Assembly: GCA_030390025.1 (NCBI GenBank)
Contig: CM059447.1
Coordinates: 45,818,001 to 45,882,000, forward strand
Direction: 5' to 3'
DNA: 64,000 nt
DNA from: Squalus acanthias
Lineage: Eukaryota
Below, one piece after another: positions 2,966 through 64,000 of the stretch. Under the pieces are notes generated by a model, which had not been told where the DNA came from, did not search any database, and worked only from the letters and a program-made list of their open reading frames with translations. Each line of letters begins with the position of its first letter. The first letter of the stretch is position 1. Position numbers and translations under genes: made by a program.

Positions 2966-5798
2966 GGGGAGGGTTCAGGAATGATAGAGAAGGAAAGAGA
3001 GGAGGGGGTGTGGCAGTATTGATGAAGGATGATACAGTTCTAAATAGAAACGATATATTAGATGGTTCTAGGACTGAATCTATTTGGCTTGAGTTGAGGA
3101 ACAGAGGGGGAGCTGTTACATTGGTGGGTGATTTTTATAGAGCTCCAAACAGTGAGGGGAAATAGCTGAGCAAACTTGTTGCCAAATATCAAAAGGCGTG
3201 TAACAAAAATAGAATAATAATATTAGGAGATTTTATTTACCCTAATATAGACGAGGAAAAACATAGTGCTAAGGGTAGGGAAGGAGAGGAATTACTGATA
3301 CGTACAGGACAACTTTCTCGATCAATACGTCTCCAGTCCAATAGAGGAAGGATCTGGTTCTGGGAAATGAAGTAGGGCTAGTGGAGTGTGTTACAGCAGG
3401 AGCTGGTCCAGCCAACAGTGACCACAACATAATTCGGTTTAGAGTAATTATTGGAAAGAGACCAGACAATATCAAAGGTAAAAATGCTAAACTGGGGAAG
3501 AGCTAATTTCAGTGATTTAAGAAGGGACCTGGCACAGGTAGATTAGAAAAGGTGATTGCAGGTAAAGCAGCAACGGAGGGCGTTCAGGGAAGAGATAGTT
3601 CAGGTACAAACTAGGCATGTTCCTTTTGAAGGGAAAAGGTAGAGCATCCAAAGCTAATGCGGCCTGGATGACAAAAAGTTAAAACAGGAAAAGGAGGCTT
3701 ATGACAAATGTCAGGAGCAAGATTCAGTTAATAACCAGGAAGATTATGGAAAGTACAGGAGGGAATTGAAAAAGTTAATACGGGAGGCAGAGAAAAGATT
3801 AGCAGGCAACATTAAATTGAACCCTAAAACATTTTATAAACATATAAAATGTAAGCTGTTAGCTGTGGAAAAAGTTGGGCCTATTGAGGACCCAAAGGGA
3901 AATCTTCATGTCGAGGCAGAGGACATGGCTAAAGTATTAAATGAGTGCTTTGCATCTGTCTTCACAAAGGAAGCGGATGATGAGGGTTACACTAAAAGAG
4001 GAGAGGGAAGTTATGGACAGGATAGTAATAGATAGAGAAGACGTACTAAAAAAATAGCATTACTGAAAGTCGGTAAGTCACCTGGTCCGGATGGAATGCA
4101 TCCTAAGTTGCTGAAAGAAACAAAGGTAGAAATAGCCGAGGCATTGGTCACAATTTTTCAATCCTCATTGGATACAGGAGCCATGCCGGAGGACTGGAGT
4201 GCTGCTCATGTTATACCTATTCAAGAAAGGGGGATGGATAAACCGGGAAACTACAGGCCAGTCAGCTTAACATCGGTGGTGGGGAAGTTATTGGAAACCA
4301 TTATCAGGGACAAAATAAACTTTCACTTGGAAAGGCATGGGTTAATCAAGGAGAGCCAGTATGGATTTGTTAAAGATAAATTGTGTCTGACTAACTTGAT
4401 TGAATTCGTTGACGAGGTACCAGAGAAGGTTGATCAAGGTAGTGCAGTAGATGTTGTGTATATGGACTTTCAGAAGGCATTTGACAAAGTGCCACACAGG
4501 AGGCTTATTAAGAAGATGGAATTAAGGGGAAAGTGGTGGAATGGATAAAATAATTGGCTCAGTGACAGGAAGTGGTGGTGGGTGGGTGTTTTTCAGACTG
4601 GGGGGTGGTTTACAGTGGTGGTCCCCAAGGGTCAGTTTTTGGGTCCATTACTCTGCAATTTTTATAAATGACCTAGACTCGGGTGTAGGGAGCAGCAATA
4701 TAAAGTTTGCAGATGACACGGAACTTGGTAAAGTAGTAGAGAGTGATGAGGATAGTTATAGACTCCTAGACTCGGGTGTAGGGAGCAGCAATATAAAGTT
4801 TGCAGATGATACGGAACTTGGTAAAGTAGTAGAGAGTGATGAGGATAGTTATAGACTCCTAGACTCGGGGGTAGGGAGCAGCAATATAAAGTTTGCAGAT
4901 GATACTGAACTTGGTAAAGTAGTAGAGAGTGATGAGGATAGTTCTAGGCTTCAGGCTGACGGGCAGGATGGTGAAATGAGCAGAAGCTCGGCCGATGGAG
5001 TTCAATGTGGAGAAGTGTGAAGTGATGCACTCTGGGAGGACTAATATGGAAAGTCAGTTTACTGTAAATGGCACGATTTTGAAAAGTGTCGATGAGCAGA
5101 GAGACCTTGGTGTCCATATACACAAATCCTTAAAGGTGGCAGGGCAAGTTGAGAAGGTGGTTAAAAAAGCGAATGGGTTACTTGGGTTTATAAATAGAGG
5201 AATAGAATATAAAAGCAAAGAGATCCTGCTCGAAGTTTATAAATCACTGGTTAGGCCTCAGCTGGAGTATTGTGGACAATTCTGGGCCCCACACTTCAGG
5301 AAAGATGTAAAGGCCTTAGAAAGGGTTCAGAGGAGGTTTACCAGGATGTTACCAGGGATGAGGGACTTCAGTTGTGAGGAGAGGTTGGAAAAGTTCGGAC
5401 TGTTCTCCTTGGAACAGAGAAGGTTAAGAGGTGACCTAATAGAGGTTTTCAAGATGATGAGAGGTTTTGATGGAGTAGATAGAAAAAAACTATTCCCTCT
5501 GGCGATTGACTCAATAACCAAAGGTCATAGATTTAAAATCATTGGAAAAAGATCTAGAGGAGAGATGAGAAAAAAGTTTCACTGCGTTGTCGGGATCTGG
5601 AGCGCTCTACCTGAAACGGTAGTGGAAGCTGATTTCATAAATAATTTTAAAAATGAGTTGGACAGGCACTGGAGGATGAGGAACTTACAGGGTTACAGAC
5701 AAAAAGCAGGACTAAGGATGACTGCTCTTTCTAAGAACCAGCACAGGCACGACGGGCCAAATGACGACCTTCTGTGCTGTAAGTTTCTATGTTTCTAA
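2966..5798 (+). mobile_element. CR1 LINE, near-complete decayed ORF2 (EN+RT), inserted into L2
   Basis: GNYRPVSLTSVVGK, DVVYMDFQKAFDKVPH, KFADDT, RPQLEYC; (TTTCTATG)-type tail. Confidence 0.92.
4673..4945 (+). repeat. In-frame 93-bp triplication of the CR1 RT catalytic segment
   Basis: CTAGACTCGGG...GATAGTTATAGACTC unit starts at 4673, 4766 and 4859; DSGVGSSNIKFADDTELGKVVESDEDS occurs three times. Confidence 0.95.
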
Positions 5799-6244: not shown

Positions 6245-8740
6245 TAGGAACTGTAGGCCATTCAGCCCCTCAAGCCTGTTCCGCCATTCAATTTAGATCA
6301 TGGCTGATCTGTATCTTAACTCCATTTACCCTGCTTTGCTGCATATCCCTTAATACCCTTACCCAACAAAAATCTATCAATCTCAGTCTTGAAAACTTCA
6401 ATTGACTCCCAGCATCCACAGCCTTTTGGGGGTGAGTTCCAGATTTTTACCACCTTTTGTGTGGAAAAAGTGCTTCCTATTTTCCAATTCAACAACACAA
6501 TTCCTGAGAAAGAGACCTTTTGAAAATGATGACTAAAGCATTTGCAATTGTTAATACCCTGGGTGGAAACCATCAGGTCCTGGAGATTTATCTATCTTAA
6601 GTCCCATTATTTTCTCTGTTACCGTTTCAAACATTTATATCGAATCCAATGCATTCCTCCCCTTAATTTATTTTCAGGTTCCCTTGTACCGCTGGTATTT
6701 TGTCATCTTCCTCTACTGTGAAGACCAATACAAAATATCAATTTAACAAGTCTGCCACTTCCTTATTGCTGATTGGAGTATCACCTTTGTCTGTCTTGAA
6801 TGGGCTCATATTTCCCAGAGCCACTCTTTCTCTCAATATATTTATAAAAGCTTTACTGTTAGCCTGATATCCCTTGCAAGTTTTTTTTTTCATTTTCCTA
6901 TTTTGCAGCTCTTAATGCTTTCGTTGTGTTTCTTTGTTGCTTTTTATAGCTCTCCCAGTCCACTGGATTTTCACTTTCCCTTGTATTTTTGTAAGCCTCT
7001 ACTTTTAGCTTGATACAGTCTCTTGTTGAGTTTATTGACCATGGTTGCCTAACTACACCATTGAGCTTTAGCCTTTTAAGAGTATGTTTTGTCCTGACCT
7101 GTTGAGTATTTCCAGCATTTTCTGTTTTTCCTTCTTTGAATACACTTTTACATAGAACTTGCAGCACAGAAGCAGGCCATTCGGCCCAACAGGTCTATGG
7201 TGGTGTTTATACTCCACACGAGCCTCCTCATACGTTACTTCATCTCGCCCTATCTATGCTATTCGCTTCAACCACTCCATGTGGTAGCGAGTTCCACATT
7301 CTCACCACGCTGAGTAAAGAAGTTTCATCTGAATTCCTTATTGGATTTATTAGTGACCGTCATGGCCCTGAGTGGAAACATCTTCTCTATGTCTACCCGA
7401 TCAAACCCCTTCATAATTTTAAAGACTTCTATTATGTCAGCTCTCAGTCCCTTTTCTAGAGAAAAGAGCCCCAGCCTGTTTGGTCTTTCCCGATGAGTAT
7501 AACCTCTCAGTTTTGGTATCGTCCTTGTAAATCTTTTTTTGTACTTTTTCCAGTGCTTTTAGATCCTTTTATAATATGGAGACAAGAACTGTTCACAGTA
7601 CTCTGAAGTGTGGTCCAACCAAGGTTCTATACATGTTTAACATAATTTCTCTGCTTTTCAATTCTATTCCTCTAGAAATGAATTTTGTTTGCTTTTTTTA
7701 TGGCCTTGTTGACCTGCGTTGCTACTTTTAATGATTTGTGTATCTGTACCCCTCCCCCCCCCCCCCACTCCCCAACCGTGTTCTCTCTTCCTCTACCCCA
7801 TTTAGACTTTTATTCCCCAGGAGTACATAGCCTCCTTATTCCTCCTGCTAAAATGCACCACCTTGTGCCTATCTATATTGAAATTAATTTTCCGTTTACA
7901 AGCCCATTCTGCAAGTTTGTTAATGTCTTGTACTTTTTCGCAGTCTTCCTCAGCATTAATGATAACCCCAATTGGGTCTCGTCCGTAGGTTAACAGTTCA
8001 GCCCAGTTTACTGTAGTCCGTTTGTCTCATTCCGTCGAAGTCGGCCTTACTTAAGATTAAAACCTTGGTTTGTGACTCCCCTACCTCCCTCTCAAACCTA
8101 ATATGGAATTCTGTCATGTTGTGGTCACTGTTCGCTAAGTGTTCCCTCACCGTCAGATTGTTGACTCATTCTGGCTCACTACTCATCCAATCTAGCATAG
8201 CCTGTTCCCTTGTTGGATCTAAAAACATACTGTTCCAGTAAACTGTTCAGAATAAACTCTCTAGAAATTGCTGCCTTTACAACTTGTGGTGTTCTGCTTC
8301 TCCCTGTCTTCGTGAAAATTAAAATCTCCCATTAAAACAGCTTTGCTTTTTCTACGTGCTTCTTTCATCTCCATTTTTATACATCCTCCTACATCATTAT
8401 TACTGCCAGACGGTCTGTAGACAACTCCCAGCAGAGTCTTGCATCCTTTACTGTTCCTTCGTTCTAATTGTTTCCACTGCCTGCTCACCCTTACTGACTT
8501 CCCTTTCCACTGCTGTAATTGTGTCTTTATCAATATTGCTACTCCTCATTTTCCAATTTCCCTGTCCTTTTTAAAGACCTTATAACCTGGAATATTTAGC
8601 TCCTAATCTTACTCAGCTTGTAGCCAAGTCTTTCTAATACCCACTAAGTCATACCCATTGAGCTGAATCTGGGCTTCTGATTGGCTTGTTTTATTCCTTA
8701 TGCTACGTGCATTAGTGTACATAACTCTGATTGGGTAACT
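6245..8740 (-). mobile_element. Nested decayed CR1 fragments (minus strand)
   Basis: Minus-strand MYTNARSIRNK, GVVYRPS, LMGDFNF (EN domain); a separate CR1 3' half at ~7152-7985. Confidence 0.8.
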
Positions 8741-13353: not shown

Positions 13354-14840
13354 TGAATCTGTTATTGACCTTTCCATTGGTAAAGGAGGCCTCAAAGTTT
13401 GACTTTTTCTGGTAAAGTTCTGGTTGATTGTGAATAGCAAACACAACATCACAGTTGTCTAGCAGCATTGACCACAAGATATTTGTGACATTGCCATGGT
13501 AGATCCTGCTTTGAGGCTGTCTGTCTTGCAGGGTCAACCTAAACCGATTTATAAAGTGTGCTTTACTGTCTGTCTAATAGATAGCCAAAGGATTGTACAT
13601 TTACATTCAATGGTTAGGGTGTGTCAGAATATTGTAAGAGGGTCTTCTGTTCGTGTGGTAACTAAATGCTGCTTTGCACTAGTCGACACGGAGACTGGTC
13701 AAAGTAAAACCTGAGGATGTTAGTTAAAGCGGCAGAGACACTGAGTTACATGGGCTGTGGAGATGAGATGGTAGAGCTACATTTGGTCATTTAATGTTTT
13801 TAAGAGTTGGTTATGGCAATTACTGCATGCTTTTCTCTTTGGGATAGAAGGGAATTTGTGTGCTCTTAGATTAACTTGAATTTGTATTTGGAAATGTCGA
13901 TGCCCAGTCAACAGAGGTCTGAAGGTGACCGTGGGAGCTTGGGACTGATGGTGAAATGACTGAGCAGACAGCAGTGATAAGTGTACGGAAGAGCATTATG
14001 TTGCTGCCTGTCGCTGGTGCAGTTTTTCATCCACTACAGAGGGATTAAACGGCATTTGGAACTCTCCTACCTGTAGGGCTGTGTATCGGCTAATGGAAAC
14101 GAGTCCATCTGTGTAATTTGTGACTCAGTATATTGCAGTAGTTGTTTTGTGTCCCAATGTCTGTGACAGTAACACACATTGATGCAATCCCTGTAAAAAT
14201 GGAACGTGACACCCATCTAATTTCATTTCTTAAGTAAAAGTCATTCAATCAGCAGAGGGGCACTGACACTGAGTGAGCTGCCTTCACTTACTGCCCCTGC
14301 CCGCTTCCTTATTCATTTAGTTTCTTTCCCCTTGTTCTCCTCCCTGTTGCACCGTATTTGCTCTTGGACCAGATAAGTCTATTTCTGTTGCAATCAAATT
14401 CTTTCACATCAAGCTCTACAGCACCTCCCAGTTTTCTGTTTCGACAAAGTAATCTATATCCTTGTATGTTTTACCCAACCCGCGTCATCATTGAACCAGG
14501 TCTCTGTGATGTCTCTAATAACATAGCTTGCCTCTCCAGCCAGCACCTCCTCGGGTCTCCCATTTTATTCCTAGGATTCCCAGTATTCCTATATGAAACT
14601 GATGATCCATTTCCCCCCTTCAGAGAGATGATTTGTCATTATTTCCCCATGTGGTTATATCCTTACACTCTGCACACTTACCTGCTGCATCAATGTCTGC
14701 ATTTCAAAAAATATTGCTCTTGGGTAGGGGTGTTTGCTGATGATTCCACAGTGTTCAGCTCCATATATTGGCCATCCTTGAGTTCCATTTCTTAAGTAAA
14801 AGTCATTCAATCAGTAGAGGGATACTGACACTGGCCATCC

Positions 14841-15886
14841 GTCGCCTCCAGTCCAGATCCAAGGTCGTCCCATCCTCTGTCGTCGAATTACAGTATACGG
14901 ACGACGCTTGCGTCTGCGCTCACTCGGAGGTCAAACTCCAAACCATCGTCAACACCTTCACCGAAGCGTACGAGAGCATGGGCCTTACACTAAACATCCG
15001 TAAGACAAAGGTCCTCTACCAACCTGCCCCCGCCACACAGTACTGCCCCCCGATTATCAAAATCCACGACAAGGCCTTGGACAACGTGGACCACTTTCCA
15101 TACCTCGGGAGCCTACTGTCAACAAGGGCAGACGTCGATGACGAAGTCCAACACCGCCTTCAGTGTGCCAGTGCAGCCTTTGGTCGCCTGAGGAAGAGAG
15201 TGTTTGAAGACCAGGACCTCAAACCCGGCACTAAGCTCATGGTCTACAGAGCAGCAGTGATACCCGCCCTGCTGTATGCCTCAGAGACATGGACCATGTA
15301 CAGCAGGCACCTCAAAGCACTGGAGAGGTACCACCAACGCTGCCTCCGCAAGATCCTGCAAATTCATTGGCAGGATAGGCGCACCGACGTCAGTGTTCTT
15401 GCTCATGCCAACATCCCCAGCATCGAAAGCTTTGACCACGCTCGATCAGCTCCGATGGACGGGTCACATTGTCCGCATGCCCGATACGAGACTCCCAAAA
15501 CAAGCGCTCTACTCGGAGCTCCGGCACAGCAAGAGAGCCCCAGGTGGGCAGAGGAACCGCTTCAAGGACACCCTCAAAGCCTCCTTGGAAAAAGTGTAAC
15601 ATCCCCACCGACACCTGGGAATCCCTGGCCCAAGACCGTACAAAGTGGAGGAGAAGCATCCGGGAAGGCGTCGACCACCTCGAGCCTCTTTGCCGGGAGC
15701 AAGCGGAAGCCAAGCGCAAGGAGCGCACGTCAACCCAAGCACCCCACCCACCCGCCCCTTCAACCACCGTCTGCCCCACCTGTGACAGAGACTGTAGGTC
15801 CCGCATTGGACTCATCAGTCACCTGAGAACTCATTTTTAATGTGGAAGCAAGTCATCCTCGGTTCCGAGGGACTGCCTAAGAAGAT
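14841..15886 (+). mobile_element. 5'-truncated RTE-clade LINE, little decayed
   Basis: LQYTDDA, GLTLNIRKTKV, FPYLGS, LLYASETWT, QLRWTGHIVRMPDTRLPKQ; C-terminal CPTC...HLRTH finger; TSD ACTGGCCATCC (14830-40) / ATTGGCCATCC (15887-97). Confidence 0.9.
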
Positions 15887-20165: not shown

Positions 20166-21096
20166 GAAATGATTGGGGAGACAGGTAGCAGCGAGGTGTA
20201 TTCTGGGGCAGTGTGCTCAGGTGGTGGGGTGGGAGGAGGGTGGGCTGCACCTGAACCGGCTGGCCCTAGATCCCAGGGGAAAGGATGACTAGGAGTGTAG
20301 AAAGGACTTTAAACCAATAAAGCGGGGGTGGGGGCGCTCAGGCAGAAATAATAGTTAAAGTAGCCTAAAGGTAAGAAAAAGGGACGTAAGAAAAGTCCAG
20401 ATGATAATGTTAAAGATAATATAAATACGTCCGGTTCATTAAAAAAAAACAAATAATGGATAAAAATACAACAAGAGCGATGGAAAAACAAGGCGTGTGA
20501 TAAGTTAAAATGTGTGAGAAAACAGCATATGGGCAGAAGGGCAGAACAGGGTCTGTTACCCAAATAAGAGTTTTAGACACGAATGTACGTAACGTTAGGA
20601 ATAAAACAAGTGAATTGGAAGCGCAAATTCAGCTAAAAGGGTCTGACGTGGCCATCACTGAGACCAGGCTACAAACTGGTTATGACTGGGGGATAAATAT
20701 TCCAGGTTATAAGGTCTTTAGAAAGGGCAGGGACATTGGAAAAGGAGGAGTAGCGATATTGATAATGGACCACTATTACAGCATTAGAAAGAGTGGATAT
20801 CAGTAAGGGTGAGCAGGCAGTGGAAACATTCTGGGTAGAATTGAGGAATAGAGAAAGATTCAAGACGTTGCTGAGAGTTGTCCATAGACCTGAGAGCAGT
20901 GATAAAGTGGGCTGCATAAACACGGAGATCAGAGAAGCTCGTTGCAAAAACAGAGTAATTATAATGGGAGACTTTAATTTTCACACAGACTGGGAGAAGC
21001 AGAACAATTCGAGTCCCAAAGGCAGCGAATTTCTTGTGTAGTCGAGACAGTTTTCTGGAACAATATGTTTTTGAACTAACAAGACAACAGGCCATA

Positions 21097-21301
21097 AATA
21101 AAAACACAAAATGCTGGAAACACTCAGCAGGTCAGGCAGCATCTGCGGAGGGAAACAGAGTTAACGTTTCAGGTCGATGACCTTTCATCAGAACTCGCTC
21201 TCTCTCTCTCTCTCTCCCCACAAATGCTGCCTGACCTGATTAATTCCAGCATTTTCTGTTTTTATTTCTGATTTCCAGCATCCGCAGTATTTTGTTTTTG
21301 T
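21097..21301 (-). mobile_element. Short fold-back Penelope-derived insertion
   Basis: Inverted arms AAAATGCTGGAA..CAGGTCAGGCAGCAT / ATGCTGCCTGACCTG..TTCCAGCATTTT; matches the Penelope tail at 39219-39305; 16-bp TSD AAGACAACAGGCCATA (21081-96) / AAGAGAACAGACCATA (21302-17). Confidence 0.8.
21158..21196 (-). ncRNA. Minimal type-I hammerhead ribozyme motif
   Basis: Minus strand reads GAGUU-CUGAUGA-A-AGGUC-AUC-GACCU-GAA-ACGU-U-AACUC: intact core, 5-bp stems I and II, palindromic ACGU as stem III. Confidence 0.75.
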
Positions 21302-21424
21302 AAGAGAACAGACCATATTAGAATTATTGATGAGTAATGAGCCAGAATTAGTCAACAGTCTAACGGTAAGGGAAAACCTCACTCAGTGACCATGATATGA
21401 TAGAATTCGACATTGGGTTTGAGA

Positions 21425-30630: not shown

Positions 30631-30969
30631 GGTTTTTCTAAAAAAAAAATCGAAGTGCGCTAGTTATTTGGATGCTGGTGAACAGAGCTTGCTCACCTGA
30701 GCAGAGCACGAACACCTGCCATGCGCTGCTTGTCTTGCTTTTTCCCCAGTGTTTGGCACAAGCGACCGTTCCGTTCTGCACCTGGACCTACCATCTGGCA
30801 CCAAGAGAAACCATTATCTGCCCTGCACTTGGTGTTCTGGTTAAATCCAGCCAGCAGGCCCCTTGGTGGCTGGCTTAGTGGGCAAAGTTGCCACCTGATG
30901 TGGCACTGAGCCAGGAAGATGCGTGTCTGTGTGTGAGTTAAGGACAGGATCATGCTCGGCTGTAGTAAC

Positions 30970-31052
30970 AACAGAAAATGTTGGAGATACGCAGCAGATC
31001 AGGCAGCATCTGTGGAGAGAGAACCAGTTAACGTTTCGGGTCAATGACCTTT
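30970..31052 (-). mobile_element. Penelope tail fragment with truncated hammerhead
   Basis: CAGGCAGCATCTGTGGAGAGAGAACCAGTTAACGTTTCGGGTCAATGACCTTT; CTGATGA box missing. Confidence 0.65.
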
Positions 31053-35005: not shown

Positions 35006-35877
35006 TCTGCCATGTGTCCGCCCATTTCCGGTCTGTCTATGTCCTCTTGAAGTCTGTTACTCTCCTCCTTATTGTTTACTACATTTCCGAGCTTTGTATC
35101 ATCCACAAACATTGAAATTGCACCCTGTATACCCAAGCCTAGGCCATTGATTGATACATATCAAAAAGAGCAGTGGTCCTAACACCGACCCCTGGGAAAC
35201 ACCACTGTATACCTCACTCCAGTCTGAAAAACAACCCTTCACCACTACTCCTCTGCTTTCTGTCCTTTAGCCAATTTTGTATCCACGCTGCCATTGGCTT
35301 TACTTTTGCTAACTGCATAAACTAGAAGGCATAAATTTAAGATCGTCAAACGAAAGGTTAGGAAAATGGTTTTTGATCAGAGGACATGGCATTCCCGATC
35401 AGAAACAGTTGGAGCAGCAGAAACCAGAATAGCTTTTGAGTGGTGGATAAATATTTTGAAAAATAAAAATTTGAAGGAGTATATGGAAAAGCAGGGACTG
35501 GGACTCTTTCAGCGAGCCAGCGTGGGCACGATGGGCCGAATGGCCTCATTCTGTACGGTAAAATTCCATGAAAAGCAAAGCTACAAATGCTGGTAATAAA
35601 CAGGTCAGGCAGCATCAGAGTTTGGTTAGTGCCCATTCATCAGTCCTGTGTGTATGACTGGCTGCTTTCACCCTGACTGACCAACTTCCTTATTCTGCTT
35701 GACTGTAGCAGGCCATTCTCCAAAGAGAATGCCATCACAGAGTGGGGATTGAATCGGAGACCCTGCTGCTCTGTGGCTGAGCTCCACAGTGGACAAGCTC
35801 ACTGGGCCATCAGGGAATCACGCCAGATGCTTACAAATGTGTCCTATTCCCTGGAATGTGTTTGTTGCTGGTAAGAG

Positions 35878-36904: not shown

Positions 36905-39310
36905 AACATTATCATTAAACCTGCTGACAAGGGTGGCGCTGTTGTTATCTGGCGAACAGATCTCTACCTTGTGGAGGCTGAATGGCAACTCTCTGACACC
37001 TCCTTCTACCTCCCCCTGGACCATGACCCCACCACCGAACATCAAGCCATCATTTCCCAAGCTATCACTGACCTCATCTCCTCTGGAGATCTTCCCTCCA
37101 CGACCTCCAACCTCATAGTCCCCGCACTTCTACCTCCTTCCCAAGATCCACAAACAGGACTGCCCTGGTAGACCCATCGTTTCAGCCTGTTCTTGCCCCA
37201 CAGAACTAATTTCTTCCTATCTTGACTCTCTTTCTCCCCTTGTCCAGTCTCTTCCCACCTACATCCGCAACTCTTTCGACGCCCTCAGTCATTTTAACAG
37301 TTTCCAGTTTCTTGGCCCTAACCGTGTCCTTTTCACCATGGGCATCCAATCCCTCTACACCTCCATCCCCACCAGGACGGCCTGAGGGCACTTCGCTTCT
37401 TTCTTGAAAGGTGGCCCAACCACCACCACCACCCTCCGCCTGGCTAAACTTGTTCTTACATTGAACTACTTCTCCTTTGACTCCACTCACTTCCTCCAAA
37501 TAAAAGGTGTTGCTATAGGAACCCGTATGGAACCTAGCTATGCCTGCCTTTTCGTGGGATACGTGGGACATTTTGTTCCAGTCCTACTCAGGCCCCCTTC
37601 CCCACCTCTTTTTCCGGTACATTGATGACTGTATTGGTGCAGCTTCCTGCTCTCGCCCCAAACTGGAAAATTTCATCAACTTTGCTTCCAATTTCCACCC
37701 TTCCCTCGCCTTCTCCAGTCCATCTCCGACTCTTCCCTTCCCTTCCTCGACTTTTCTATCTTCATTTCTGGGATAGGCTGTTGACCAATATCTACTATAA
37801 GCCCACTGACTCCCACAGCTACCTGGACTACACCTCCTCCCACCCTGCTTCCTGTAAGGATTCTATTCCATTCTCCCATTTTCTCTGTCTCCTCCGCATC
37901 TGTTCTGACGATGCCACCTTCTACACCAAATGCGTCCGATATGTCTTCCTTTTTTCCTCAACCGATGATCCCTGATCCCCCCCCCCCCCCCCACCACCAC
38001 CATGGTTGACAGGGCCCTCGAAAGTGTCCGTCCCATTTCCTGCCCTTCTGCTCTCACCTCTTCTCCTCCCTCCCAGAACCACGACAGGGTTCCCCTTGTC
38101 CTCGCCTTCCACCCCACCAGCCTCCGCATTCAACGGATAATCCTGCGCCACCTCCAGCGTGAACCCACCACCAAACACATCTTCCCCTCCCCTCCCCTTT
38201 CAGCATTCCGAAGAGACCACTCCCTCCGCAACACCCTGATCCACTCCTCAATCACCCCCAACAGTCCCTCCCCGTCCCATGGCACCTTCCTGTGCAAGTG
38301 CAGGAGATGCAACACTTGCCCTTTTGCCTCCTTCCTTCCTACCGTCCAGGGCCCCAAACACTCCTTCCAGGTGAAACAGCGATTTACTTGTACTACTTTC
38401 AATTTAATATACTGTATTCGCTGCTCACAATATGGTCTCCTATACCAAACTGGACACCAAACGCAGATTTGGGTGACTGCTTTGCAGACACCTCCGATTA
38501 GTCCGCAAGCATGACCCTGAGCTCCCAGTCGCTCCACTCCCACTCAGACCTCTCTGTTTTTGGCCTCCTACAATGTTCTAATGAAACTCGAGGAACAGCA
38601 CCTCATCTTTCCATTAGGCACTTTACAGCCTTCCAGACTCAACATCGAGTTCAACAATTTCAGACCATAACCACGGCTCCCATTTTTCTAGACAGCAGTT
38701 GCTGGTAATGATGCTGCTGTTACCATTTACACCTCCTCTGGGCCCATCTTTTGTTTCTTTACTTGTCTCATTGCCGCCCCCTTTACGTTGCACCATCATC
38801 CCATCAAAAAATATGATCCACTTCACTTTTGCCATTTAATAAGAAATCAAATAGGGAATTCAGAAGAAACTTCTTTACCCAGAGAGTGGTGAGAATGTGG
38901 AACTCGCTACCACAGGGAGTGGTCGAGGCGAATAGTATAGATGCATTTAAGGGGAAGCTGGATAAACATGAGGGAGAAGGGAATAGAGGGTTATGCTGAC
39001 AGAGTTAGATGAGGAAAGACGGGAGGAGGCTCGAGTGGAGCATAAACGCCGGCATGGACTGGTTGGGCCAAATGTGTTTCTGTGCTGTATATTCTATGTA
39101 ATTTAATTTCTAATGCCTTCCACCTTATCACAGACCTTCCCTTTTGTTCTTTCCTCTCCTTCCCCCCTTTCCCTGCCTCTGGAGTTGTTTAAAAACCTGT
39201 TGCATCTCTGACGTTTGCCAGTTCTGATGAAAAGTCATCAACCTGAAGCATTTATTTCTCTCCAGAGGCTGCCTGACCTGCTGAGTATTCCCAGCATTTT
39301 CTGCCTTTAT
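36905..39310 (+). mobile_element. Penelope-like element (RT + GIY-YIG, Cys-rich linker), decayed; CR1 tail inserted at ~38840-39100
   Basis: IKPADKGGAVVIW, PKIHK..GRPIVS, QSLYTSIP, GVAIGTRM, RYIDD, YYKPTDSHSYL, CKCRRCNTC, NLIYCIRCS; tail with degenerate CTGATGA...GAA. Confidence 0.9.
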
Positions 39311-39396
39311 TATGTAGATTACCTGTGGCTCCTTTTGTTTACAATGTGTTAAATTGGTGTTTTATTTTCTGACTGATCTCTTCCCTTGCCTTGCAG

Positions 39397-40154
39397 CTTT
39401 TATAATCATGATCATTCTGGCTTTGATCAGGATCAGTAAGGGCAAAGGAGAGGGCCACCCCCCTGTCGCCAACTTCTCTGGTATCCCCAATTTGTTTGGT
39501 GTGTGCGTCTACTCCTTCATGTGTCAGCATTCCCTGCCCTCGCTCATTACCCCCATCAGTAAGAAGAAGCACATGATCAAGCTGGTCCTGGTCGACTATG
39601 TGCTCATCCTGGCCTTCTACAGCCTCCTGGCCTTCACCGCCATCTTCTGCTTCAGTAACCTGAAGGACATGTACACCCTCAACTTCACCAGCAACTGCGA
39701 TGTCGTCAGTGTGCCCTTCATCCGCTACTTCCTGGGACTCTTCCCAGTTTTCACAATCAGCACAAACTTCCCAATAATTGCAGTTACGTTACGCAATAAC
39801 TGGAAAACGGTCTTCCACAGAGACGGAGGAATGTACCCATGGCTAATTGATCGAATCGTCTTTCCCCTAATCACCATCATTCCTGCCATAATAGTGGCGT
39901 TCTGCACCCATGACCTGGAGACTCTGGTGGGCATCACTGGTTCTTATGCAGGCACTGGTATTCAGTACATCGTCCCTGCATGCTTGGTCTACTTCAGCAG
40001 AAAGGACATTGGGCTTGTGCTTGGTAATGACGTTCAGAATAAGTACAGATCTCCCTTCAAGCATACCTTCTGGGTCCTCTTTGTGTTGGTGTGGTCAGTG
40101 TCCTGCTTCATCTTTGTAACAACCAACATTGTGCTGATGGAAACCAAGTCCTGA
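39397..40154 (+). CDS. TMEM104: TMEM104 (amino-acid transporter-like) terminal coding exon
   Basis: FIIMIILALIRI..EGHPP..NLFGVCVYSFMCQHSLPSLITP..FPVFTISTNFPIIAVTLRNNWKT..FCTHDLE..ETKS*; polypyrimidine tract + CAG acceptor ending at 39396 (phase 1); stop TGA 40152-54. Confidence 0.95.
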
Positions 40155-42571: not shown

Positions 42572-43535
42572 AAAAAAAATTATATTCATTCATGGGATGT
42601 GGGCATCGCTGGCAAGGCCAGCATTTATTGCCCATCCCTAGTTGCCCTTAAGAAGGTGGTGGTGAGCCGCCGCCTTGAACCGCTGCAGTCCGTGTGGTGA
42701 AGGTGCTCCCACAGTGCTGCTAGGGAGGGAGTTCCAGGATTTTGACCCAGCGACGATGAAGGAACGGCGATATACTTCCAAGTCAGGATGTGTGTGACTT
42801 GGAGGGGAACTTGGAGGTGGTGGTCTTGCTGCCCTTGTCTTTCTAGGTGGTAGAGGTCGCGGGTTTGGGAGGTGTTGCCGAAGAAGCCTTGGCGAGTTGC
42901 TGCAGTGCATCTTGTAGATGGTACACACTGCAGCCACAGTACGCCGGTGGTGGAGGGAGTGAATGTTTAAGGTGGTGGATGGGGTGCCAATCAAATTGGC
43001 TACTTTGTTTTGGATGGGGGTCGAGCTTCTTGAGTGTTGTTGGAGCTGCACTCATCCAGGAAAGTGGAAAGTATTCCATCACACTCCTTACTTGTGCCTT
43101 GTAGATGGTGGGAAGGCTTTGGGGAGTCGGGAGGTGAGACACTCGCCGTAGAATACCCAGCCTCTGATCTCTTGTTGCCACAGTATTTATGTGACTGGTC
43201 CAGTTAAGTTTCTGGTCAATGGTAACCCCCAGGATATTGATGGTGGGGGATTCAGCGATGGTAATGCTGCTGAATGTCATGGGGCGGTGGTTAGACTCTC
43301 GCTTGTTGGAGATAGTCATAGCCCGGCACTTCTGTGGCGCAAATGTTACCTGCCACTTATCCACCCAAGCCTGAATGTTGTCCAGGTCTTGTTGCAAGCG
43401 GGCATGGACTGCTTCATTAACTGAGGAGTTGCGAATGGCACTGAACACTGTGCAGTCATCAGCGAACATCCCCACTTCTGACCTTATGATGGAGGGAAGG
43501 TCATTGATGAAGCAGGTGAAGATGGTTGGGCCTAG
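42572..43535 (-). mobile_element. CR1-group LINE 3' portion, left arm of an inverted pair
   Basis: FINDLPSIIRSEVGMFADDC, LQQDLDNI, YKAQVRSVMEY. Confidence 0.9.
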
Positions 43536-43980
43536 GATGAGTACAGCTCCAACAACACTCAAGAAGCTCGACACCATCCAGGACAAAGCAGCCCACTTGA
43601 TTGGCACCCCATCCACCACCTTAAACATTCACTCCCTCCACCACCAGGGTACCATGGCTGCAGTGTGTACCATCTACAAGATGCACTGCAGCAACTCGCC
43701 AAGGCTTCTTCGGCAGCACCTCCCAAACCCACGACCTCTACCACCTAGAAGGGCAAGGGCAGCAGGCGCATGGGAACGCCACCACCTCCAAGTCGCACAC
43801 CATCCTGACTTGGAAGTATATCGCCGTTCCTTCATCGTTGCTGGGTCAAAATCCTGGAACTCCCTCCCTGACAGCACTGTGGGAGTACCTTCAAGAAGGC
43901 GGCTCACCACCACCTTCTCAAGGGCAACAAATGCTGGCCTTGCCAGTGACGCACGCCTACATCCCAGGAACGAATAAAAA
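43536..43980 (+). mobile_element. Same-family LINE 3' portion, right arm in opposite orientation
   Basis: Revcomp of ~42590-43060 with indels; ends CCCAGGAACGAATAAAAA. Confidence 0.9.
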
Positions 43981-44924: not shown

Positions 44925-47212
44925 TCCCCACCTTGGATACTCGAGACTGATCTTAAGGGAGGGGTAGGGGCTTGCCAGAGGTCACCGTTAACGGCGGCGA
45001 CCTTGGCAGCACGATCTGCCTGTGAGTTACCCTGGGTATGTACGTCCGAAGAACGTGAGTGGGACTGCACTTTACCAACATAGACGGGCTGATCGTGAAT
45101 TTAAAGAGTCCCAAAGGGAAGCAAAGAGGTCTGCAATGGAGCAGGGTCTTACTATCGACAGTACCAAAATTATTCCGAGCATACAGCGGTAAAGATAACA
45201 GTGTTACTCGCATAGACACTAACAGGTATGTCATGGGTAATTTGGATCGCTGTCACCGGGGCTGCAACTTCAGCCTATTGGGCAGAGTGGGGAATGCATT
45301 TATACATGAGTTTTCGGTCATGCAAAACTACCGCAAATCCAGTAAGGCGCTTTCCATCCCTATGGTAGGATGATCCATCAATATAGACGTCCTGGGCATC
45401 ACTTAGGCGAGACGGGGTGACGGTCGATCTCCAGTGGTGGAAGGGGGTATTCATAGCTTCCCCCCCCTCGTATAGTAGGAGCTGGGGTAGCAGAGTTGTC
45501 TGCTTTGGCGTTATTTCCAAATCTCTCTGAGTTAACAGGAGAATCCAATGACTGAGTCGAGCGGAGGAGACTAAAGTACCCCCTGGTTTGAGTAGAAGAT
45601 TCAAAGGAGTGTGGGGATTGTGGATAATCATTTTGTTCAATCCGGTAATAAACGTGAAGTGTTTGACCGCCCAAAAAGTGGCCAGCAGATGTCGCTCACA
45701 CACAGTGTAATTCTTCAGCACGCCATTCAAAATGCGAGAGGCGTACGCAATTGGCATAAGTTTATCATATACGTCTTGGCACAGAATGGCAGCAAGACTC
45801 TGATCGGTGGATCCTACCTCCAGGTGGAAAGGCTTGTCCCGGTCAGGACTTCTCAGGCATGTGGCTTGTATAACGGCAGTCTTAAGGAGGGACACAGCCA
45901 TGGTATGTTCGGTGGTCTAGTCACGGGCCACAGAATCCTCTTCGCCCTTTAATAGTTCATATAAGGGTTTGGCCAGCTCCGCAAATCTGGGAATAAACGA
46001 GCATTGGTCTCCCACCAGACCCAAGAAGGAACGAAGTGCGGTTTTTGGATGCGGGCAATGATAAATGCTGAATCACGTCAATCTTATGCTGGTCGGGGCT
46101 GAGCCCCTTCGGTCCCACATTAACCCCTAAAAATGTCACTTCTGGTTATAACAATTGTGCTGCCTTTGGATTAATTTTTAGTCTGGCCTTCAGAAGGAGG
46201 TCTGGTAACTCTTCCATTAGTTCAATGAGTTTGTTTGTCAGGTGTAGTAAGCAAAAGGTCATCGACATACTGCAGCAGGCAGTCAGGTCTCGAGAAAGGT
46301 TTCAGTGCCTGAGCCATCCGTTTGTGGAATATAGTCGGGGCGTTGTGAAAGCCTCGAGGCAAACATGTCCATGCCCAAACAGGAATACTCCAGAACCCAT
46401 TTGAAATGTCAAAGGTGGGGAAGTAGCAGCTACCTGGTGGAATCTGGGACAGGAGAGTGGGGGTCTCCTGAACAACAGGGGCGCAAGGTGGGGTTATCGA
46501 ATTAAGCTTACGATAATCAATTGTTAGACGCCAGCTATCGTCTGGTTTCTTAATTGGCCAGGTTGGAGAATTAGTGGTAAAAGTGCCAATTCGGATAACA
46601 CCCTGCTTTAAAAATGAATCGATAGTAGACCGAACATAAGCTTTACTCTCAGCCGGAATGGAATACTGCTTAACAGGAGGGTGGGAGGGTTCATTAACCT
46701 CCTCATCTCCCGACATCCTACCACAGTCATGTTTGGACTTAGCAAAAACCTCTGAAAAGGGCGAAGTCCTCGGGTTTTTTAATCGCATATACCGAATGGG
46801 CATCCGAAATAGGTGTCGGTGGTCCCTCATTAAAGTGCCACCAAAGACAATCATTAACGTAGTCGAGGACAGCACAGTGTTTATGCAGCGCGTCACTTCC
46901 AAGGATACCTTTCTGGTCATGGGTGGCAATATGTACAGGAGAGGGGACATCGACGGAATTCCCATCGATGGACAAGACTGTGGAGCTCAATCCCTGATTA
47001 GCTAACTGAGTAGAAGCATTAAAGCCGGAAAGGTTTAGGGTGGTGCCAGAATGGGAAAAGGGAGCGGGGTCATGTAAAATAGTCACGGCAGAACCGGAAT
47101 CCACAAGCATAACCTGGCGGCAGCCTCCATGATCAGTGGCCCAGACAATGGGTCGTCTGTCCTCCCCGTACCAGACAGGAGAAGACGTGGTCACTGCAGA
47201 GGCCGGTGACCG
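44925..47212 (-). pseudogene. pol: Retroviral-like pol (protease, RT, tether, RNase H), frameshifted
   Basis: LVDSGSAVTIL..GILGSD; WRLTIDYRKLN, FDISNGFWSIP, LPRGFHNAP, QYVDDLL; PIAYASRIL..ERHLLA; VYIDGSS..SAQ*AE..KVQSH..GNSQADRAAK. Confidence 0.9.
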
Positions 47213-50367: not shown

Positions 50368-53300
50368 TAGGAAGAACAGGCAAAAAGGAAAAGGAGGCGG
50401 GGTGGCGTTGTTAGTAACGGATGACATCAGAGCAATAGTGAGAAAAGATATTGGCTCAGAAAATCAAGATATAGAATGAGTCTGGGTGGAGCTAAGAAGC
50501 ACCAAGGGGCAGAAAACATTGGTGGGAGTTGTCTATAGGCCTTCAAACAGTAGTGGTAATGTACGGGATGGCATAAAACAGGCAATTAGAGATGCATATA
50601 ACAAGGGTACTACAGTAATCATGGGTGACTTTAACCTACATATAGACTGGCCAAACCAAATTAGCAATAATACTGTGGAGGATGAATTCCTGGAGTGTGT
50701 ACGAGATGGTTTTTTAGACCAGTACGTTGAGGAGCCAACTAGGGAACAGGCTATCCTAGATTGGGTATTGTGCAATGAGAAGGGGTTAATTAATAATCTT
50801 GTTGTGCAGGGTCCTTTAGGGAAGAGTGACCATAACATGATAGAATTCTTCATTAAGATGGAAAGTGAAGAAGTCCAATCTGAAACTAGGGTTCTAAATC
50901 TAAACAAAGGAAACTACGAAGGTATGAGGAGTGAGTTGGTTATGATAGATTGGGGAACGTCATGATGGTGGATAGGCAATGGCTAACATTTAAGGAACGA
51001 ATGCATGAATTGCAACAGTTATACATTACTTTCTGGCGCAAAAACACAAAAGGAAAAGCGGCTCAACCATGGCTAATAAAAGAAATTAAGGATAGTATTA
51101 GATCCAAAGAGGAGTCATATAAAGTTGCTGGAAAAAGAAGCAAGCCTGAGGATTGGGAGCAGTCTAGAATTCAGCAAAAAAGGACCAATAGATTGATTAA
51201 GAGGGGAAAAATAGAGTATGAGAGTAAACGTGCAAAGAACATAAAAGCGGACTGTAAAAGCTTCTACAAGTATGTAAAAAGAAAAAGATTAGTGAAGACA
51301 AATATAGGTCCCTTACAGTCAGAAATGGGAGAATTTATAATGGGGAACAAGGAAATGGCCGAGCAATTAAAAAAATACTTTGGTTCTGTCTTCACGGAAG
51401 AGGACACAAATAACTTCCCAGAAATGCTAGGGAACCAAGGGTCTAGTGAGAAGGAGGAATTAAAGGAAATTAGTATTAGTAAAAAAAATAGTGTTGGAGA
51501 AATTAATGGGACTGAAAGCCGATAAATCCCCAGGGCCTGATGATCTGCATCAGAGTACTAAAAGAGGTAGCCATGGAAATAGTGGATGCATTGGTGGTCA
51601 TCTTCCAAAATGCTATAGATTATGGAACAGTCCCTGCAGATTGGAGGGTGGCAAATGTAACCCCACTATTTAAAAAAGGAGGGAGAGAGAAAACAGGGAA
51701 CTACAGACCGGTTAGCCTAACATCAGTAGTAGGGAAAATGCTAGAGTCTATTATAAAGGATGTGATAACAGGACACTTAGAAAATATCAACGGGATTAGA
51801 CAAAGTCAACATGGATTTATGAAAGGAAAATCATGTTTGACAAACCTACTGGAGTTTTTTGAGGATATAACTGGTAGAATAGATAAGGGAGAACCAGTGG
51901 ATGTGGTGTATTTGGATTTTCAGAAGGCCTTTGATAAAGTCCCACATAAGAGGTTAGTGTGCAAAATTAAAGCACATGGGATTGGGGGTAATATACTGAC
52001 ATGGATTGAAAATTGGTTTAACAGAGAGTAGGAATAAATGGGTCTTTATCGGGGTGGCAGGCGGTGACTAGTGGGGTACCACAGGGATCAGTGCTTGGGC
52101 CCCAGCTATTCACAATATATATCAATGATTTGGATGAGGGAACCAAATGTAATATTTCCAAGTTTGCTGACGTCATGAAATTAGGTGGGATTGTGAGTTG
52201 TGAGGAGGATGCAAAGAGGCTTCAAGGTGATTTAGACAAGTTGAGTGAGTAGGTAAATACATGGCAGTGTGAAGGAATAAGCCATATTCAGAAAAATACA
52301 CCATTCTATGAAAGAATTCTGGCCTTATTAAAACATGACAAACTGGGCTTGAAAATCTAAAAAAAGCCAGCAATGGAGAAGCTGTATTGTTCACAGCATT
52401 CAGGCTATTGGGATAAGATAAGTTGTTGACACTGAATCAATAACCTTATTGAAACAGGAGGTTGGAGGCTCCTGAAGTCTGAAGCTTTGGAAAGAACACA
52501 ATGGTACACCCTGTTAAGGTGTTCTAAATTACACTTCGGAAAGAAACACATAAAATTAAGAAACATATGCCTTTGTAAAAATGACATCAAATGAAACACA
52601 GGAGACACGATTCTGTGTTGCAACCAGCTGAGGTAACTAAGAATTGCATAAATCACCCTGGTTGAGGTGTTTTAATTTATACTTCGTAAACAGACAAACA
52701 GAAGACCTTGGTAAAAATGACATCAAATAGATGCACTTGCTGTTACACCGTTTTTTATGATAAGCTTCGAACACCTAAAGGAGAGACACGAGTCTGCATT
52801 GCTACCAGCTGAGGTGACTGTAATAGCAGGGGTCAGCAACAAATGACTAGCGATAATTAGCTTACATCAGCAGAAAACTTCAAAGGAAATACCACTAAAA
52901 AAGGATATAAATATTGAACTTTCAAATGGGATGATAGTCTCGCTGTAAAGGGGCAAAGCGATTCTCAGGCTTCAGAGGCGGCTCTGTAAGTCTACAACTC
53001 TTTGTACCTCGGGGATCAAGGTATTGTACTGTATTTGATTTTGGTGGATATCCTGGAATAAAGACTAAGAACTGTAAAACTGTAGCGAAGTTAAGATTTG
53101 AGAATAAGGATCTCTGATAAGAATTGTAAGCTTTCTCTTTTTGGAACTGTTAATGTTGCGATTGAAACACCTACTGTAATTACATGTCCGTTCTTTAATA
53201 AATCTATATATTTTTAGAATTGTCTCACATAATACTTCTGTATCAAACTCGCAAACTCAATCTCTGTACACTCTTTGGTGAGGAGTTGCAGAATTCTGGG

Positions 53301-54385
53301 GGAGTTTTCCGGACCCTCATAATATCCAGAACGTTACAGTCTAGCTAAACTTATTAAAAGCGCTATCTGGAGCACGGTAACATCTTCAGGTTGTTCCTTT
53401 CCTTTAGGGAGAGATGGTCCGGACCTTTAGACCCAATTAAGCGTCTTTAGGATTCAGCTACCTCAAACTTTAGTTGAAAGTGAACGTCTGGGGAATACGC
53501 CTGATCTGGGGTAGCCCTAAAGGGTCTAGGACTAGTAATTATCCCTTCAGTAGATGCAGTATAACGTGGATAAATGTGAAGTTATCCACTTCGGTAGGAA
53601 AAACAGAAAGGCAGCGTATTATTTAAATGGTGATAGATTGGGAAATGTTGATGTACAGAGGGACCTGGGTGTCCTTGTACACCAGTCACTGAAAGCAAAC
53701 ATGCAGGTGCAGCAAGCAGTTAGGAAGGCAAATGGTATGTTGGCCTTCATTGCAAGAGGATTTGAGTACAGGAGCAAGGATGTCTTACTACAGTTATACA
53801 GGGCCTTGGTGAGACCACACCTGGAGTACTGTGTGCAGTTTTTGTCTCTTTACCTAAGAAAGGATATACTTGCCATAGAGGGAGTGCACCAAAGGTTCAC
53901 CAGACTGATTCCTGGGATGGCAGGACTGTCGTATGAGGAGAGATTGGGTCGACTAGGCCTGTATTCACTAGAGTTTAGAAGAATGAGAGAGGATCTCATT
54001 GAAGCATATAAAATTCTGACAGGGCTAGACAGACTAGATGCAGGGAGGATGTTTCCCCTGGCTGGGGGATCTAGAACGAGGGGTCACAGTCTCAGGATAC
54101 GGGGTAGGATATTTAGGACTGAGATGAGGAGAAATTTCTTCACTCAGAGGGTGGTGAACCTGTGGAATTTTCTACCACAGAAGGCTGTGGAGGCCAAGTC
54201 ACTGAATATATTTAAGAAGGAGATAGATAGATTTCTAGACACAAAAGGCCTCAAGGGGTATGGGGAGAGAGTGGGAATATGGTATTGAGATAGCGGATCA
54301 GCCATGATCATATTGAATGGCGGAGCAGGCTCGAAGGGCCGAATGGCCGACTCCTGCTCCTATTTTTCTATGTTTTCTATGTTTC
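50368..54385 (+). mobile_element. CR1 LINE, near-complete ORF2, split by a solo LTR
   Basis: [58 protein letters not shown]; (TTTTCTATG) tail. Confidence 0.95.
52268..53549 (+). mobile_element. Solo LTR (~1.28 kb)
   Basis: TGTGAAGGAATAA...TTATCCCTTCA; TSD GCAG/GTAG; removal restores CR1 TGGCAG|ATGCAG; TATAAA near 52905 and AATAAA near 53057 and 53197. Confidence 0.85.
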
Positions 54386-58504: not shown

Positions 58505-58794
58505 CACAATCAAACCCTTTCTTAATCTAAAATATCTCTATCAGGCCATCTCTCAGTCTTCTCTTTTCTAGAGAAAAGCGCCCCAGCCTGTCTAGACTTT
58601 ACTGATAAATATGGCCTCTCAGTTCTGGTATTATTTGAGTAAATCTTTTTTGTACCTTTGCCGGTGCCTCTATATCATTTTTATAATATAGACCAGAACT
58701 GTTCACTGAACTCCAAGTGTGGTCTAATCAAGATTTTATAAAAGATTAACATAACTTCTCTGCTTTTCAATTCTATCCCTCTGAATATTAATAC
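58505..58794 (-). mobile_element. CR1 fragment cut by the satellite
   Basis: IFRGIELKSREVMLIFYKILIRPHLEFSEQFWS. Confidence 0.8.
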
Positions 58795-61700: not shown

Positions 61701-64000
61701 GTGTCCAGGTTACTGTGACCTCCCGTGTCCAGGTTACTGTGACCTCCCGTGTCCAGGTTACTGTGACCTCCCGTGTCCAGGTTACTGTGATCTCCCGTGT
61801 CCTGGTTACTGTGACCCGTGTCCAGGTTACTGTGACCTCCCCCAGGTTACTGTGACCTCCCGTGTCCTGGTTACTGTGACCTCCCGTGTCCAGGCTGTGA
61901 CCTCCCGTGTCCTGGTTACTGTGACCTCCCGTGTCCTGGTTACTGTGACCTCCCGTGTCCAGGCTGTGACCTCCCGTGTCCAGGTTACTGTGACCTCCCG
62001 TGTCCAGGTTACTGTGACCTCCCCCAGGTTACTGTGACCTCCCGTGTCCTGGTTACTGTGACCTCCCGTGTCCAGGCTGTGACCTCCCGTGTCCTGGTTA
62101 CTGTGACCTCCCGTGTCCAGGCTGTGAACTCCCGTGTCCAGGTTACTGTGACCTCCCGTGTCCAGGTTACTGTGATCTCCCGTGTCCAGGTTACTGTGAC
62201 CTCCCCCAGGTTACTGTGACCTCCCGTGTCCTGGTTACTGTGACCTCCCGTGTCCAGGCTGTGACCTCCCGTGTCCTGGTTACTGTGACCTCCCGTGTCA
62301 AGGTTACTGTGACCTCCCGTGTCCTGGTTACTGTGACCCGTGTCCAGGTTACTGTGACCTCCCGTGTCCTGGTTACTGTGACCTCCCGTGTCCAGGTTAC
62401 TGTGACCTCCTGTGTCCAGGTTACTGTGACCTCCCGTGTCCAGGTTACTGTGACCTCCTGTGTCCAGGTTACTGTGACCTCCCGTGTCCAGGTTACTGTG
62501 ACCTCCCGTGTCCAGGTTACTGTGACCTCCCGTGTCCTGGTTACTGAGACCTCCCATGTCCAGGTTACTGTGACCTCCCGTGTCCTGGTTACTGAGACCT
62601 CCCATGTCCAGGTTACTGTGACCTCCCGTGTCCAGGTTACTGTGACCTCCCGTGTCCAGGCTGTGACCTCCTGTGTACAGGTTACTGTGACCTCCCGTGT
62701 CCAGGCTGTGACCTCCCGTTTCCTGGTTACTGTGACCTCCCGTGTCCTGGTTACTGTGACCTCCCGTGTCCAGGTTACTGTGACCTCCCGTGTCCAGGTT
62801 ACTGTGACCTCCTGTGTCCAGGTTACTGTGACCTCCCCCAGGTTACTGTGACCTCCCGTGTCCTGGTTACTGTGACCTCCCGTGTCCTGGTTACTGTGAC
62901 CTCCCGTGTCCAGGCTGTGACCTCCCGTGTCCAGGTTACTGTGACCTCCCGTGTCCAGGTTACTGTGACCTCCCCCAGGTTACTGTGACCTCCCGTGTCC
63001 AGGTTACTGTTACCTCCCGTGTCCAGGTTACTGTGACCTCCTGTGTCCAGGTTACTGTGACCTCCTGTGTCCAGGTTACTGTGACCTCCTGTGTCCAGGT
63101 TACTGTGACCCGTGTCCTGGTTACTGTGACCTCCCGTGTCCAGGTTACTGTGACCTCCCGTGTCCAGGTTACTGTGACCTCCCGTGTCCTGGTTACTGTG
63201 ACCTCCCGTGTCCTGGTTACTGTGACCTCCCGTGTCCTGGTTACTGTGACCCGTGTCCAGGTTACTGTGACCTCCCGTGTCCTGGTTACTGTGACCCGTG
63301 TCCTGGTTACTGTGACCTCCTGTGTACAGGTTACTGAGACCTCCCATGTCCAGGTTACTGAGACCTCCCGTGTCCTGGTTACTGAGACCTCCCATGTCCA
63401 GGTTACTGAGACCTCCCGTGTCCTGGTTACTGAGACCTCCCATGTCCAGGTTACTGTGACCTCCCGTGTCCTGGTTACTGAGACCTCCCATGTCCAGGTT
63501 ACTGTGACCTCCCGTGTCCTGGTTACTGTGACCCGTGTCCAGGTTACTGAGACCTCCCGTGTCCAGGTTACTGTGACCTCCCGTGTCCTGGTTACTGTGA
63601 CCCGTGTCCTGGTTACTGTGACCTCCTGTGTACAGGTTACTGTGACCTCCCGTGTCCTGGTTACTGAGACCTCCCATGTCCAGGTTACTGTGACCTCCCG
63701 TGTCCTGGTTACTGTGACCCGTGTCCAGGTTACTGAGACCTCCCGTGTCCAGGTTACTGTGACCTCCCATGTCCTGGTTACTGTGACCTCCCGTGTCCTG
63801 GTTACTGTGACCCGTGTCCAGGTTACTGTGACCTCCCGTGTCCTGGTTACTGTGACCTGTGTCCAGGTTACTGTGACCTCCCGTGTCCTGGTTACTGTGA
63901 CCCGTGTCCTGGTTACTGAGACCTCCCGTGTCCAGGTTACTGTGACCTCCCATGTCCTGGTTACTGTGACCTCCCATGTCCTGGTTACTGTGACCCGTGT
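58795..64000. repeat. 24-bp satellite GGTTACTGTGACCTCCCGTGTCCW, >5 kb, runs off the window end
   Basis: >200 tandem units with 20- and 21-bp variants. Confidence 0.98.

Follow-up and report, generated by a model that had tools for sequence, protein, structure and literature searches.

The 64-kb stretch of Squalus acanthias DNA analyzed here (the window) contains a short fold-back with a hammerhead ribozyme motif. The question raised by this locus is whether such a fold-back is a unit that is copied as such or a product of a coding retroelement. The fold-back spans positions 21097-21301 (205 bp). Its inverted arms are 82-86% complementary, and its folding energy was -93.3 kcal/mol (z of -9.9), with 0 of 200 shuffled sequences being equally stable. 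Inverted-repeat pairs and folding thus confirmed the 205-bp fold-back that an earlier note had described. The 16-bp target-site duplication (TSD) ascribed to it was likewise found flanking the element (Table 1). In addition, the host repeat occurs elsewhere in the window as an empty paralogous site, which has the target once and lacks the insert. Since the target is single there, the TSD is supported as real.

Table 1. Positions of the fold-back, its hammerhead, and related sequences in the window
Feature	Position	Strand	Remarks
Target-site duplication, copy 1	21081..21096		16 bp, 14/16 identical to copy 2
Untailed arm	21097..21195	-	pLTR -32 to +66 from predicted cut; ~91% identical to L045
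Hammerhead GAAA, palindromic ACGU, and U	21170-21167, 21167-21164, and 21163	-	
Hammerhead stem II	21183-21171	-	AGGUC-auc-GACCU
Hammerhead core CUGAUGA	21191-21185	-	Bulged A at 21184
Hammerhead stem I	G21196-AGUU / AACU-C	-	Read from sequence
Head-to-head junction	21196..21219		Blurred by expanded GA microsatellite; tailed-arm end about +1 to +3
Tailed arm	21204..21301	+	pLTR about +3 to +102; holds no hammerhead core
Tail of tailed arm (~34 nt)	about 21268-21301	+	
Target-site duplication, copy 2	21302..21317		
Empty paralogous target site	8190..8215 (approximate)	+	Second copy of host repeat
Decayed 5'-truncated coding Penelope fragment	36906..38801	+	RT end, linker, GIY-YIG region, 3' UTR; 83% to family references
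3' end of coding fragment	39097..39311	+	Same arm, degenerate hammerhead; another repeat separates ORF
Solo pLTR stub, family 1	30960..31052	-	
Short pLTR stub, family 1	7093..7129	+	
Very short pLTR remnant	35585..35616		

On the minus strand, positions 21196-21158 read as a minimal type I hammerhead motif, in which the conserved core (CUGANGA, GAAA, and UH) and stems I and II are all present. The CUGAUGA, the GAAA, stem II (AGGUC/GACCU), and the palindromic ACGU followed by U that had been claimed for this strand were each found, and the predicted cut between 21163 and 21162 agreed with the motif read-out. The claim of a GAGUU/AACUC stem I held for the window copy, which has 5 pairs, but not for the native element, whose stem I has 4 bp because it carries C, not G, before AGUU. 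Among exact genomic matches to the 34-nt core of its family (here family 1), C precedes AGUU in 16,012, G in 625, A in 401, and T in 380. The excess of G over A and T might suggest an extra G derived from a cap, but many of the G cases are explained by the target or by an inverted arm. The fifth pair of the window copy, at G21196, is derived from the junction. The palindromic positions 15-16, which read ACGU in family 1 and AGCU in a second family (family 2), permit a dimeric stem III, and the motif proved to be, as had been suggested, a minimal hammerhead of the Penelope type whose stem III is palindromic.

To judge from sequence, the motif is not due to chance, because a hammerhead descriptor gave 26 matches in 800 kb of evenly spaced genomic sequence plus the window (864 kb in total) and 0 matches on the reversed sequences. 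An Rfam search of the 64-kb window gave no match at an E value of ≤1 with models that may or may not cover minimal variants. When the monomer and a 43- to 44-nt homodimer were folded to minimum energy, the core bases were paired and the active hammerhead was not formed; these folds were used as evidence neither for nor against activity. Minimal hammerheads are described as cleaving weakly, solely as dimers or with protein (PMC4209133, PMC11167929).

Stem covariation across copies, which the earlier note had set as a test of its reading, was present between two Penelope families of this genome. In an alignment of 8 hammerhead sequences from the two families, 8 of 11 stem pairs changed on both sides and 98.9% of the cells were paired, compared with 20-43% in slid-register controls. 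Double-sided changes between families 1 and 2 affected 4/4 stem I pairs, 3/5 stem II pairs, and the stem III palindrome, and the core was invariant. As the 8 sequences were picked as descriptor matches and in effect form one between-family contrast, the covariation counts as support and not as a statistic. As a structure, the hammerhead is real, and two families have it. Family 2 is a second Penelope-like family found genome-wide (L096, L141, and L359-L428), with 65,792 exact genomic occurrences of a 35-nt arm motif. It has a minimal hammerhead that covaries with that of family 1, a clear TATATA box, and an ORF sharing about 30% protein identity with the family-1 ORF. One family-2 two-armed element (L216) sits within a family-1 arm.

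In coding copies, the same hammerhead and arm follow, on the 3' side, an ORF with an RT domain (PF00078) and a weak GIY-YIG match (PF01541; E about 1e-3, below the Pfam cutoff). These domains were read in scanned long copies; sixteen long copies were chosen by open-frame length. A Cys-x4-Cys-x2-Cys linker motif was seen in both shark families, by motif alone. The hammerhead unit and the Penelope fragment of the window belong, as had been supposed, to one Penelope family, with arm and hammerhead in common. By extrapolation from 43 arms in 800 kb to a genome of 3.7 Gb, there are about 2x10^5 family-1 arms per genome. Some Penelope ends (L052-L060, contig C1 6.99-7.13 Mb) lie within tandem units of about 1.7 kb that also contain a short-period repeat, a satellite-like amplification; these C1 arrays include unrelated repeat DNA.

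Several other features were noted in the window. Directly after the Penelope end lies a 278-aa open frame (39318-40151, plus strand) of the amino-acid transporter family PF01490 (E of 6e-11), possibly a retrocopy or a large exon. A minus-strand frame at 49754-50257 matches MROH2B-like HEAT repeats (PF23210, E of 7e-38) and is likely a host exon. An LTR-type retroelement has left broken RT and RNase H-like frames at 45278-46986 (minus strand), and LINE fragments are found at 4036-5798, 14744-15826, 42846-43628, and 50480-54288. A long run of open frames on both strands with a strong base skew, at 58681-63337, is probably a minisatellite array.

The head-to-head, one-tailed layout of the fold-back also occurs in many long copies, such as L073 (5.7 kb) and L075 (5.1 kb), and forms a size continuum, from about 130 bp up to 5.7 kb, in which arms extend into the RT/endonuclease ORF. 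The tail corresponds to sequence that, in full copies, leads on to the beginning of the ORF; the likely start codon lies about 40 nt past the tail. In a set of 90 family-1 arms chosen by an internal 31-nt motif alone (the first 30 matches listed on C1 and 60 later ones), the arm 3' ends clustered at two places relative to the predicted cut, near +66-70 and near +102. Among 24 distinct two-armed insertions of family 1, 20 had exactly one tail, 3 had none, and 1 doubtful case had both; repeats of 10-17 nt resembling TSDs flanked 15 of the 24. In family 2, exactly one tail was present in 58/58 paired arms. Solo arms were tailed in 29/61 cases in family 1 and in 17/37 in family 2. Because of the shared arm and hammerhead, the same layout up to 5.7 kb, the clustered 3' ends, and the one-tail pairing, the sequences place the fold-back at the short end of this continuum of Penelope insertions. 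With a probability of roughly 0.87, the 205-bp element consists of two 5'-truncated 3' terminal repeats of an abundant coding Penelope-like retroelement, joined head to head inside a 16-bp TSD, one with a 34-nt tail and one without; it likely arose in a single insertion event and is likely dead. Its hammerhead would be inherited cargo, with a putative activity in the parent RNA that is dimeric or protein aided.

If the ribozyme had set the 5' ends of the arms, these would start at +1. A pile-up at the cut was looked for in both families and was not found, since only 2/90 family-1 arms, 1/54 in a set drawn separately, with the window included, and 1/95 in family 2 began there. Instead, 21/90 family-1 arms (21/63 of those reaching that far) began at -35 to -27, as did 8/54 in the separate set; for comparison, the 158-nt stretch between -43 and -200 had 12/37 ends. 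The arm 5' ends were called by local alignment, with a blur of several bases. In family 2, 19/95 arm 5' ends fell within 4 nt around an A seven bases above the core, deep ends in this family often being reference limits and some arms being duplicates or two arms of one insertion. In both families, the A at the peak has an initiator-like context and lies about 30 nt below a TATA-like box, as judged by the general promoter consensus. The box reads TATATA in 10/12 family-2 references and is TTAAAA-like in 11/12 family-1 references, which are hand-picked, related copies. A minor pile-up of 5' ends was seen at +20 to +23, beside an arm palindrome (L096, L100, L120, L128, L140, and L154). In contigs from two runs of another organism, loose ends occurred at both 3' ends and at -30/-31, in agreement with the peak, though contigs cannot show RNA starts. 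Two raw DNA runs yielded 17 reads and 0 reads, of no use here.

The 5' end of the untailed arm in the window copy is the A of AGUU (-32), which is where the ends pile up. At slightly less than even odds, this arm starts at the transcription start of the parent and is a run-off cDNA of an uncleaved transcript. More tentatively, the whole swarm of stubs of about 100-140 nt may record that start. In the first pLTR, RT would begin at a point 70 or 102 nt below the hammerhead, and it would run off the 5' end of the uncleaved transcript, which is set by the TATA box and initiator on the 5' edge of the hammerhead. ORF-bearing copies would need a tandem or hammerhead-circularized template, because PAc, the Poseidon element of Anolis carolinensis, is reported to require RNA downstream of its RT start sites (PMC11167929). 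The hammerhead might then act as a switch between abortive stubs and productive copies, one that could be read from genomes alone. The promoter described for fly Penelope is unlike this proposed layout: it has no TATA box, and transcription starts 46 nt above an intron of 75 nt (PMC2377424). The literature searched, from which most subscription papers were missing, did not contain the start-site explanation.

Alternatively, the short arms may end there because the hammerhead cut the RNA, or because RT stalls at the hammerhead structure or at the U-rich run above it. We consider this unlikely on the whole, with RT stalling as a live rival to a transcription start. 5' ends are also raised within the hammerhead (16/90 at -26 to -2), and a few arms begin at the cut (L177, L198, L266, and L281), as the tailed arm of the window copy may. 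However, arms at the cut are as rare as given above, and the peak is one that RT would reach only after passing the entire structure. Moreover, copies that span the ORF mostly read through the same spot: among 30 copies selected by the 5' end of the ORF, 24 retained the upstream arm and 22 reached the site, of which 1 stopped there (Fisher p=0.009), a comparison that sets one subfamily against another, 2 arms of the ORF-spanning subfamily being present in the unbiased set. Matched-subfamily motif counts gave 4,306 and 170 matches.

As for the joining of the arms, the element endonuclease would nick both target strands about 10-17 nt apart, and each nick would prime reverse transcription at one of two internal RNA start sites, at +66-70 and about +102. 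Both cDNAs would stop early, and their 3' ends would be joined via short complementarity, often provided by the hammerhead's own stems and palindromes. A comparable layout, an inverted pLTR with a one-sided tail and a TSD, has been published (PMC3846280, PMC8557442). In the account of PAc, there are two adjacent internal RT start sites, both strands are cut and extended, and hammerhead cleavage is dispensable in vitro (PMC11167929). Additional Penelope pieces at the head-to-head junction of three copies (L075:4563-4634, L036, and L039) suggest template jumps.

Instead of two nicks, fold-back self-priming with an antisense strand as template could have produced the inverted arms, a route suggested for the Adineta Penelopes (PMC3846280). 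The palindromes at the junctions would suit such an origin, as would five long copies whose two arms match each other at 94-98.7% identity, a value higher than or near that for the best other copy. Self-priming alone nevertheless seems improbable, as it does not explain why one arm ends at each of two defined RT start positions. It also gives no account of arms from different subfamilies or of the tail-only partner arms (L080, L118, L198, and L201), which would resemble twin priming on one RNA. The arms of L085 (3657-6530) are 72% identical and those of L086 87%, and L078 also falls in the 72-92% range. Such dissimilar arms suggest that two different templates can also serve a single event and that the arms need not share one RNA.

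The peak of 5' ends might also represent a 3' splice site, with an intron ending at helix I of the hammerhead as in fly Penelope (PMC4209133). Family 1 does have a pyrimidine run and a CAG just above the core, and a donor-like motif was seen by eye about 95 nt upstream of the hammerhead in the 3' UTR of the L081 subfamily. We regard splicing as a distinctly poor explanation, since the 14 unpartnered arms ending at the peak share no upstream exon, either mutually or with the element (L219 carries an inverted piece). Several arms also retain the CAG, and family 2 has the same peak without an AG at the site. Within the L081 subfamily itself, the donor-like motif and the end in a pyrimidine run plus CAG may mark an intron resembling that of fly Penelope.

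The reading proposed by the earlier note, a non-autonomous retrozyme-like fold-back family that is transcribed, self-cleaving, and re-mobilized by Penelope, is very improbable and already largely refuted by junction diversity. At least 40 scored copies are of similar size and have outer ends in common and long TSDs, a few centre junctions recur, and animal retrozymes have been argued to derive from pLTRs (bioRxiv 10.64898/2026.07.22.740005). The similar size is expected because the best matches were selected for resemblance to the query. The claim of genome-wide copies with the same boundaries stood for the outer ends but not for the inner junctions, since the centre came in 11 different lengths in the best 30 of 40 scored matches and the lengths grade into the ORF. 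Four of these 30 (L005, L007, L014, and L024) share both flanks and are not independent; they therefore represent one insertion multiplied inside another repeat or duplication. One inner junction is found in several copies, the tail being on one arm in L003, L013, and L016 and on the other in L025. As a few junctions recur, there may have been limited re-amplification, but overall each fold-back looks as if made anew at insertion. Neither a fixed unit copied as such nor head-to-tail repeats with one hammerhead per unit were found, the inner junctions being variable, the lengths continuous, and the locus a single inverted unit. The TSD has decayed. The window copy is likely inert, because it has one hammerhead, no tandem array, and no TATA-like box upstream of the hammerhead within the unit, and its arms are 7-10% diverged from a young copy.

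The locus itself is ordinary, a likely dead stub of published layout and one of about 10^5. The stub population is useful for its strict one-tail pairing and for a 5'-end peak at the predicted start in two families that are about 30% identical in protein. It yields sharp predictions about where capped ends lie and whether long copies derive from circles. Published accounts describe as open both what Penelope hammerheads do and how the inverted one-tailed structure arises (PMC8557442, PMC11167929). The features of EN+ Penelope-like elements, namely, an inverted 5'-truncated arm with a one-sided tail of 30-40 nt, a TSD, and a terminal sequence linked to RT and GIY-YIG, were all found. As described, Pen2a_Av of Adineta vaga (PMC3846280; scheme in PMC8557442, Fig. 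2) similarly has head-to-head arms, a one-sided tail of 30-40 bp, a TSD, and a hammerhead in the pLTR, which also contains a putative TATATATA plus a TCACT initiator (PMC3846280). Compared with Adineta, the shark arms are cut to about 100 nt, the copy number is about 10^5, and the TSDs are 10-17 nt instead of 8-10. The Cys-rich linker of both shark families is like that described for Neptune/Nematis (PMC8557442), a likeness by motif and not by tree.

PAc (Frangieh et al. 2024, PMC11167929) is alike in having two RT start positions about one tail length apart downstream of the hammerhead and in the scarcity, as reported there, of genomic or RNA ends at the cut. Its ORF begins inside the hammerhead, whereas the likely start codon in the shark lies past the tail. 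With published minimal hammerheads, the shark motif shares the type I core, a 4-bp helix I, a bulged base before helix II, G10.1-C11.1, palindromic positions 15-16, and the lack of a monomeric helix III; opposite-strand pairs 100-700 bp apart have already been noted for them. The shark helix II has 5 bp versus 7-8 in Schistosoma, and sharks are unlisted in the account of minimal hammerheads consulted. Finally, non-LTR animal retrozymes (PMC7229834; bioRxiv 10.64898/2026.07.22.740005) resemble the fold-back in being short, non-coding, and PLE related, with a type I hammerhead. They differ in that they are described as units of 170-400 nt repeated head to tail, each with its own hammerhead and expressed in circular form, whereas the window holds a single inverted unit with one minimal hammerhead. 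Annotators should not label such hairpins retrozymes.
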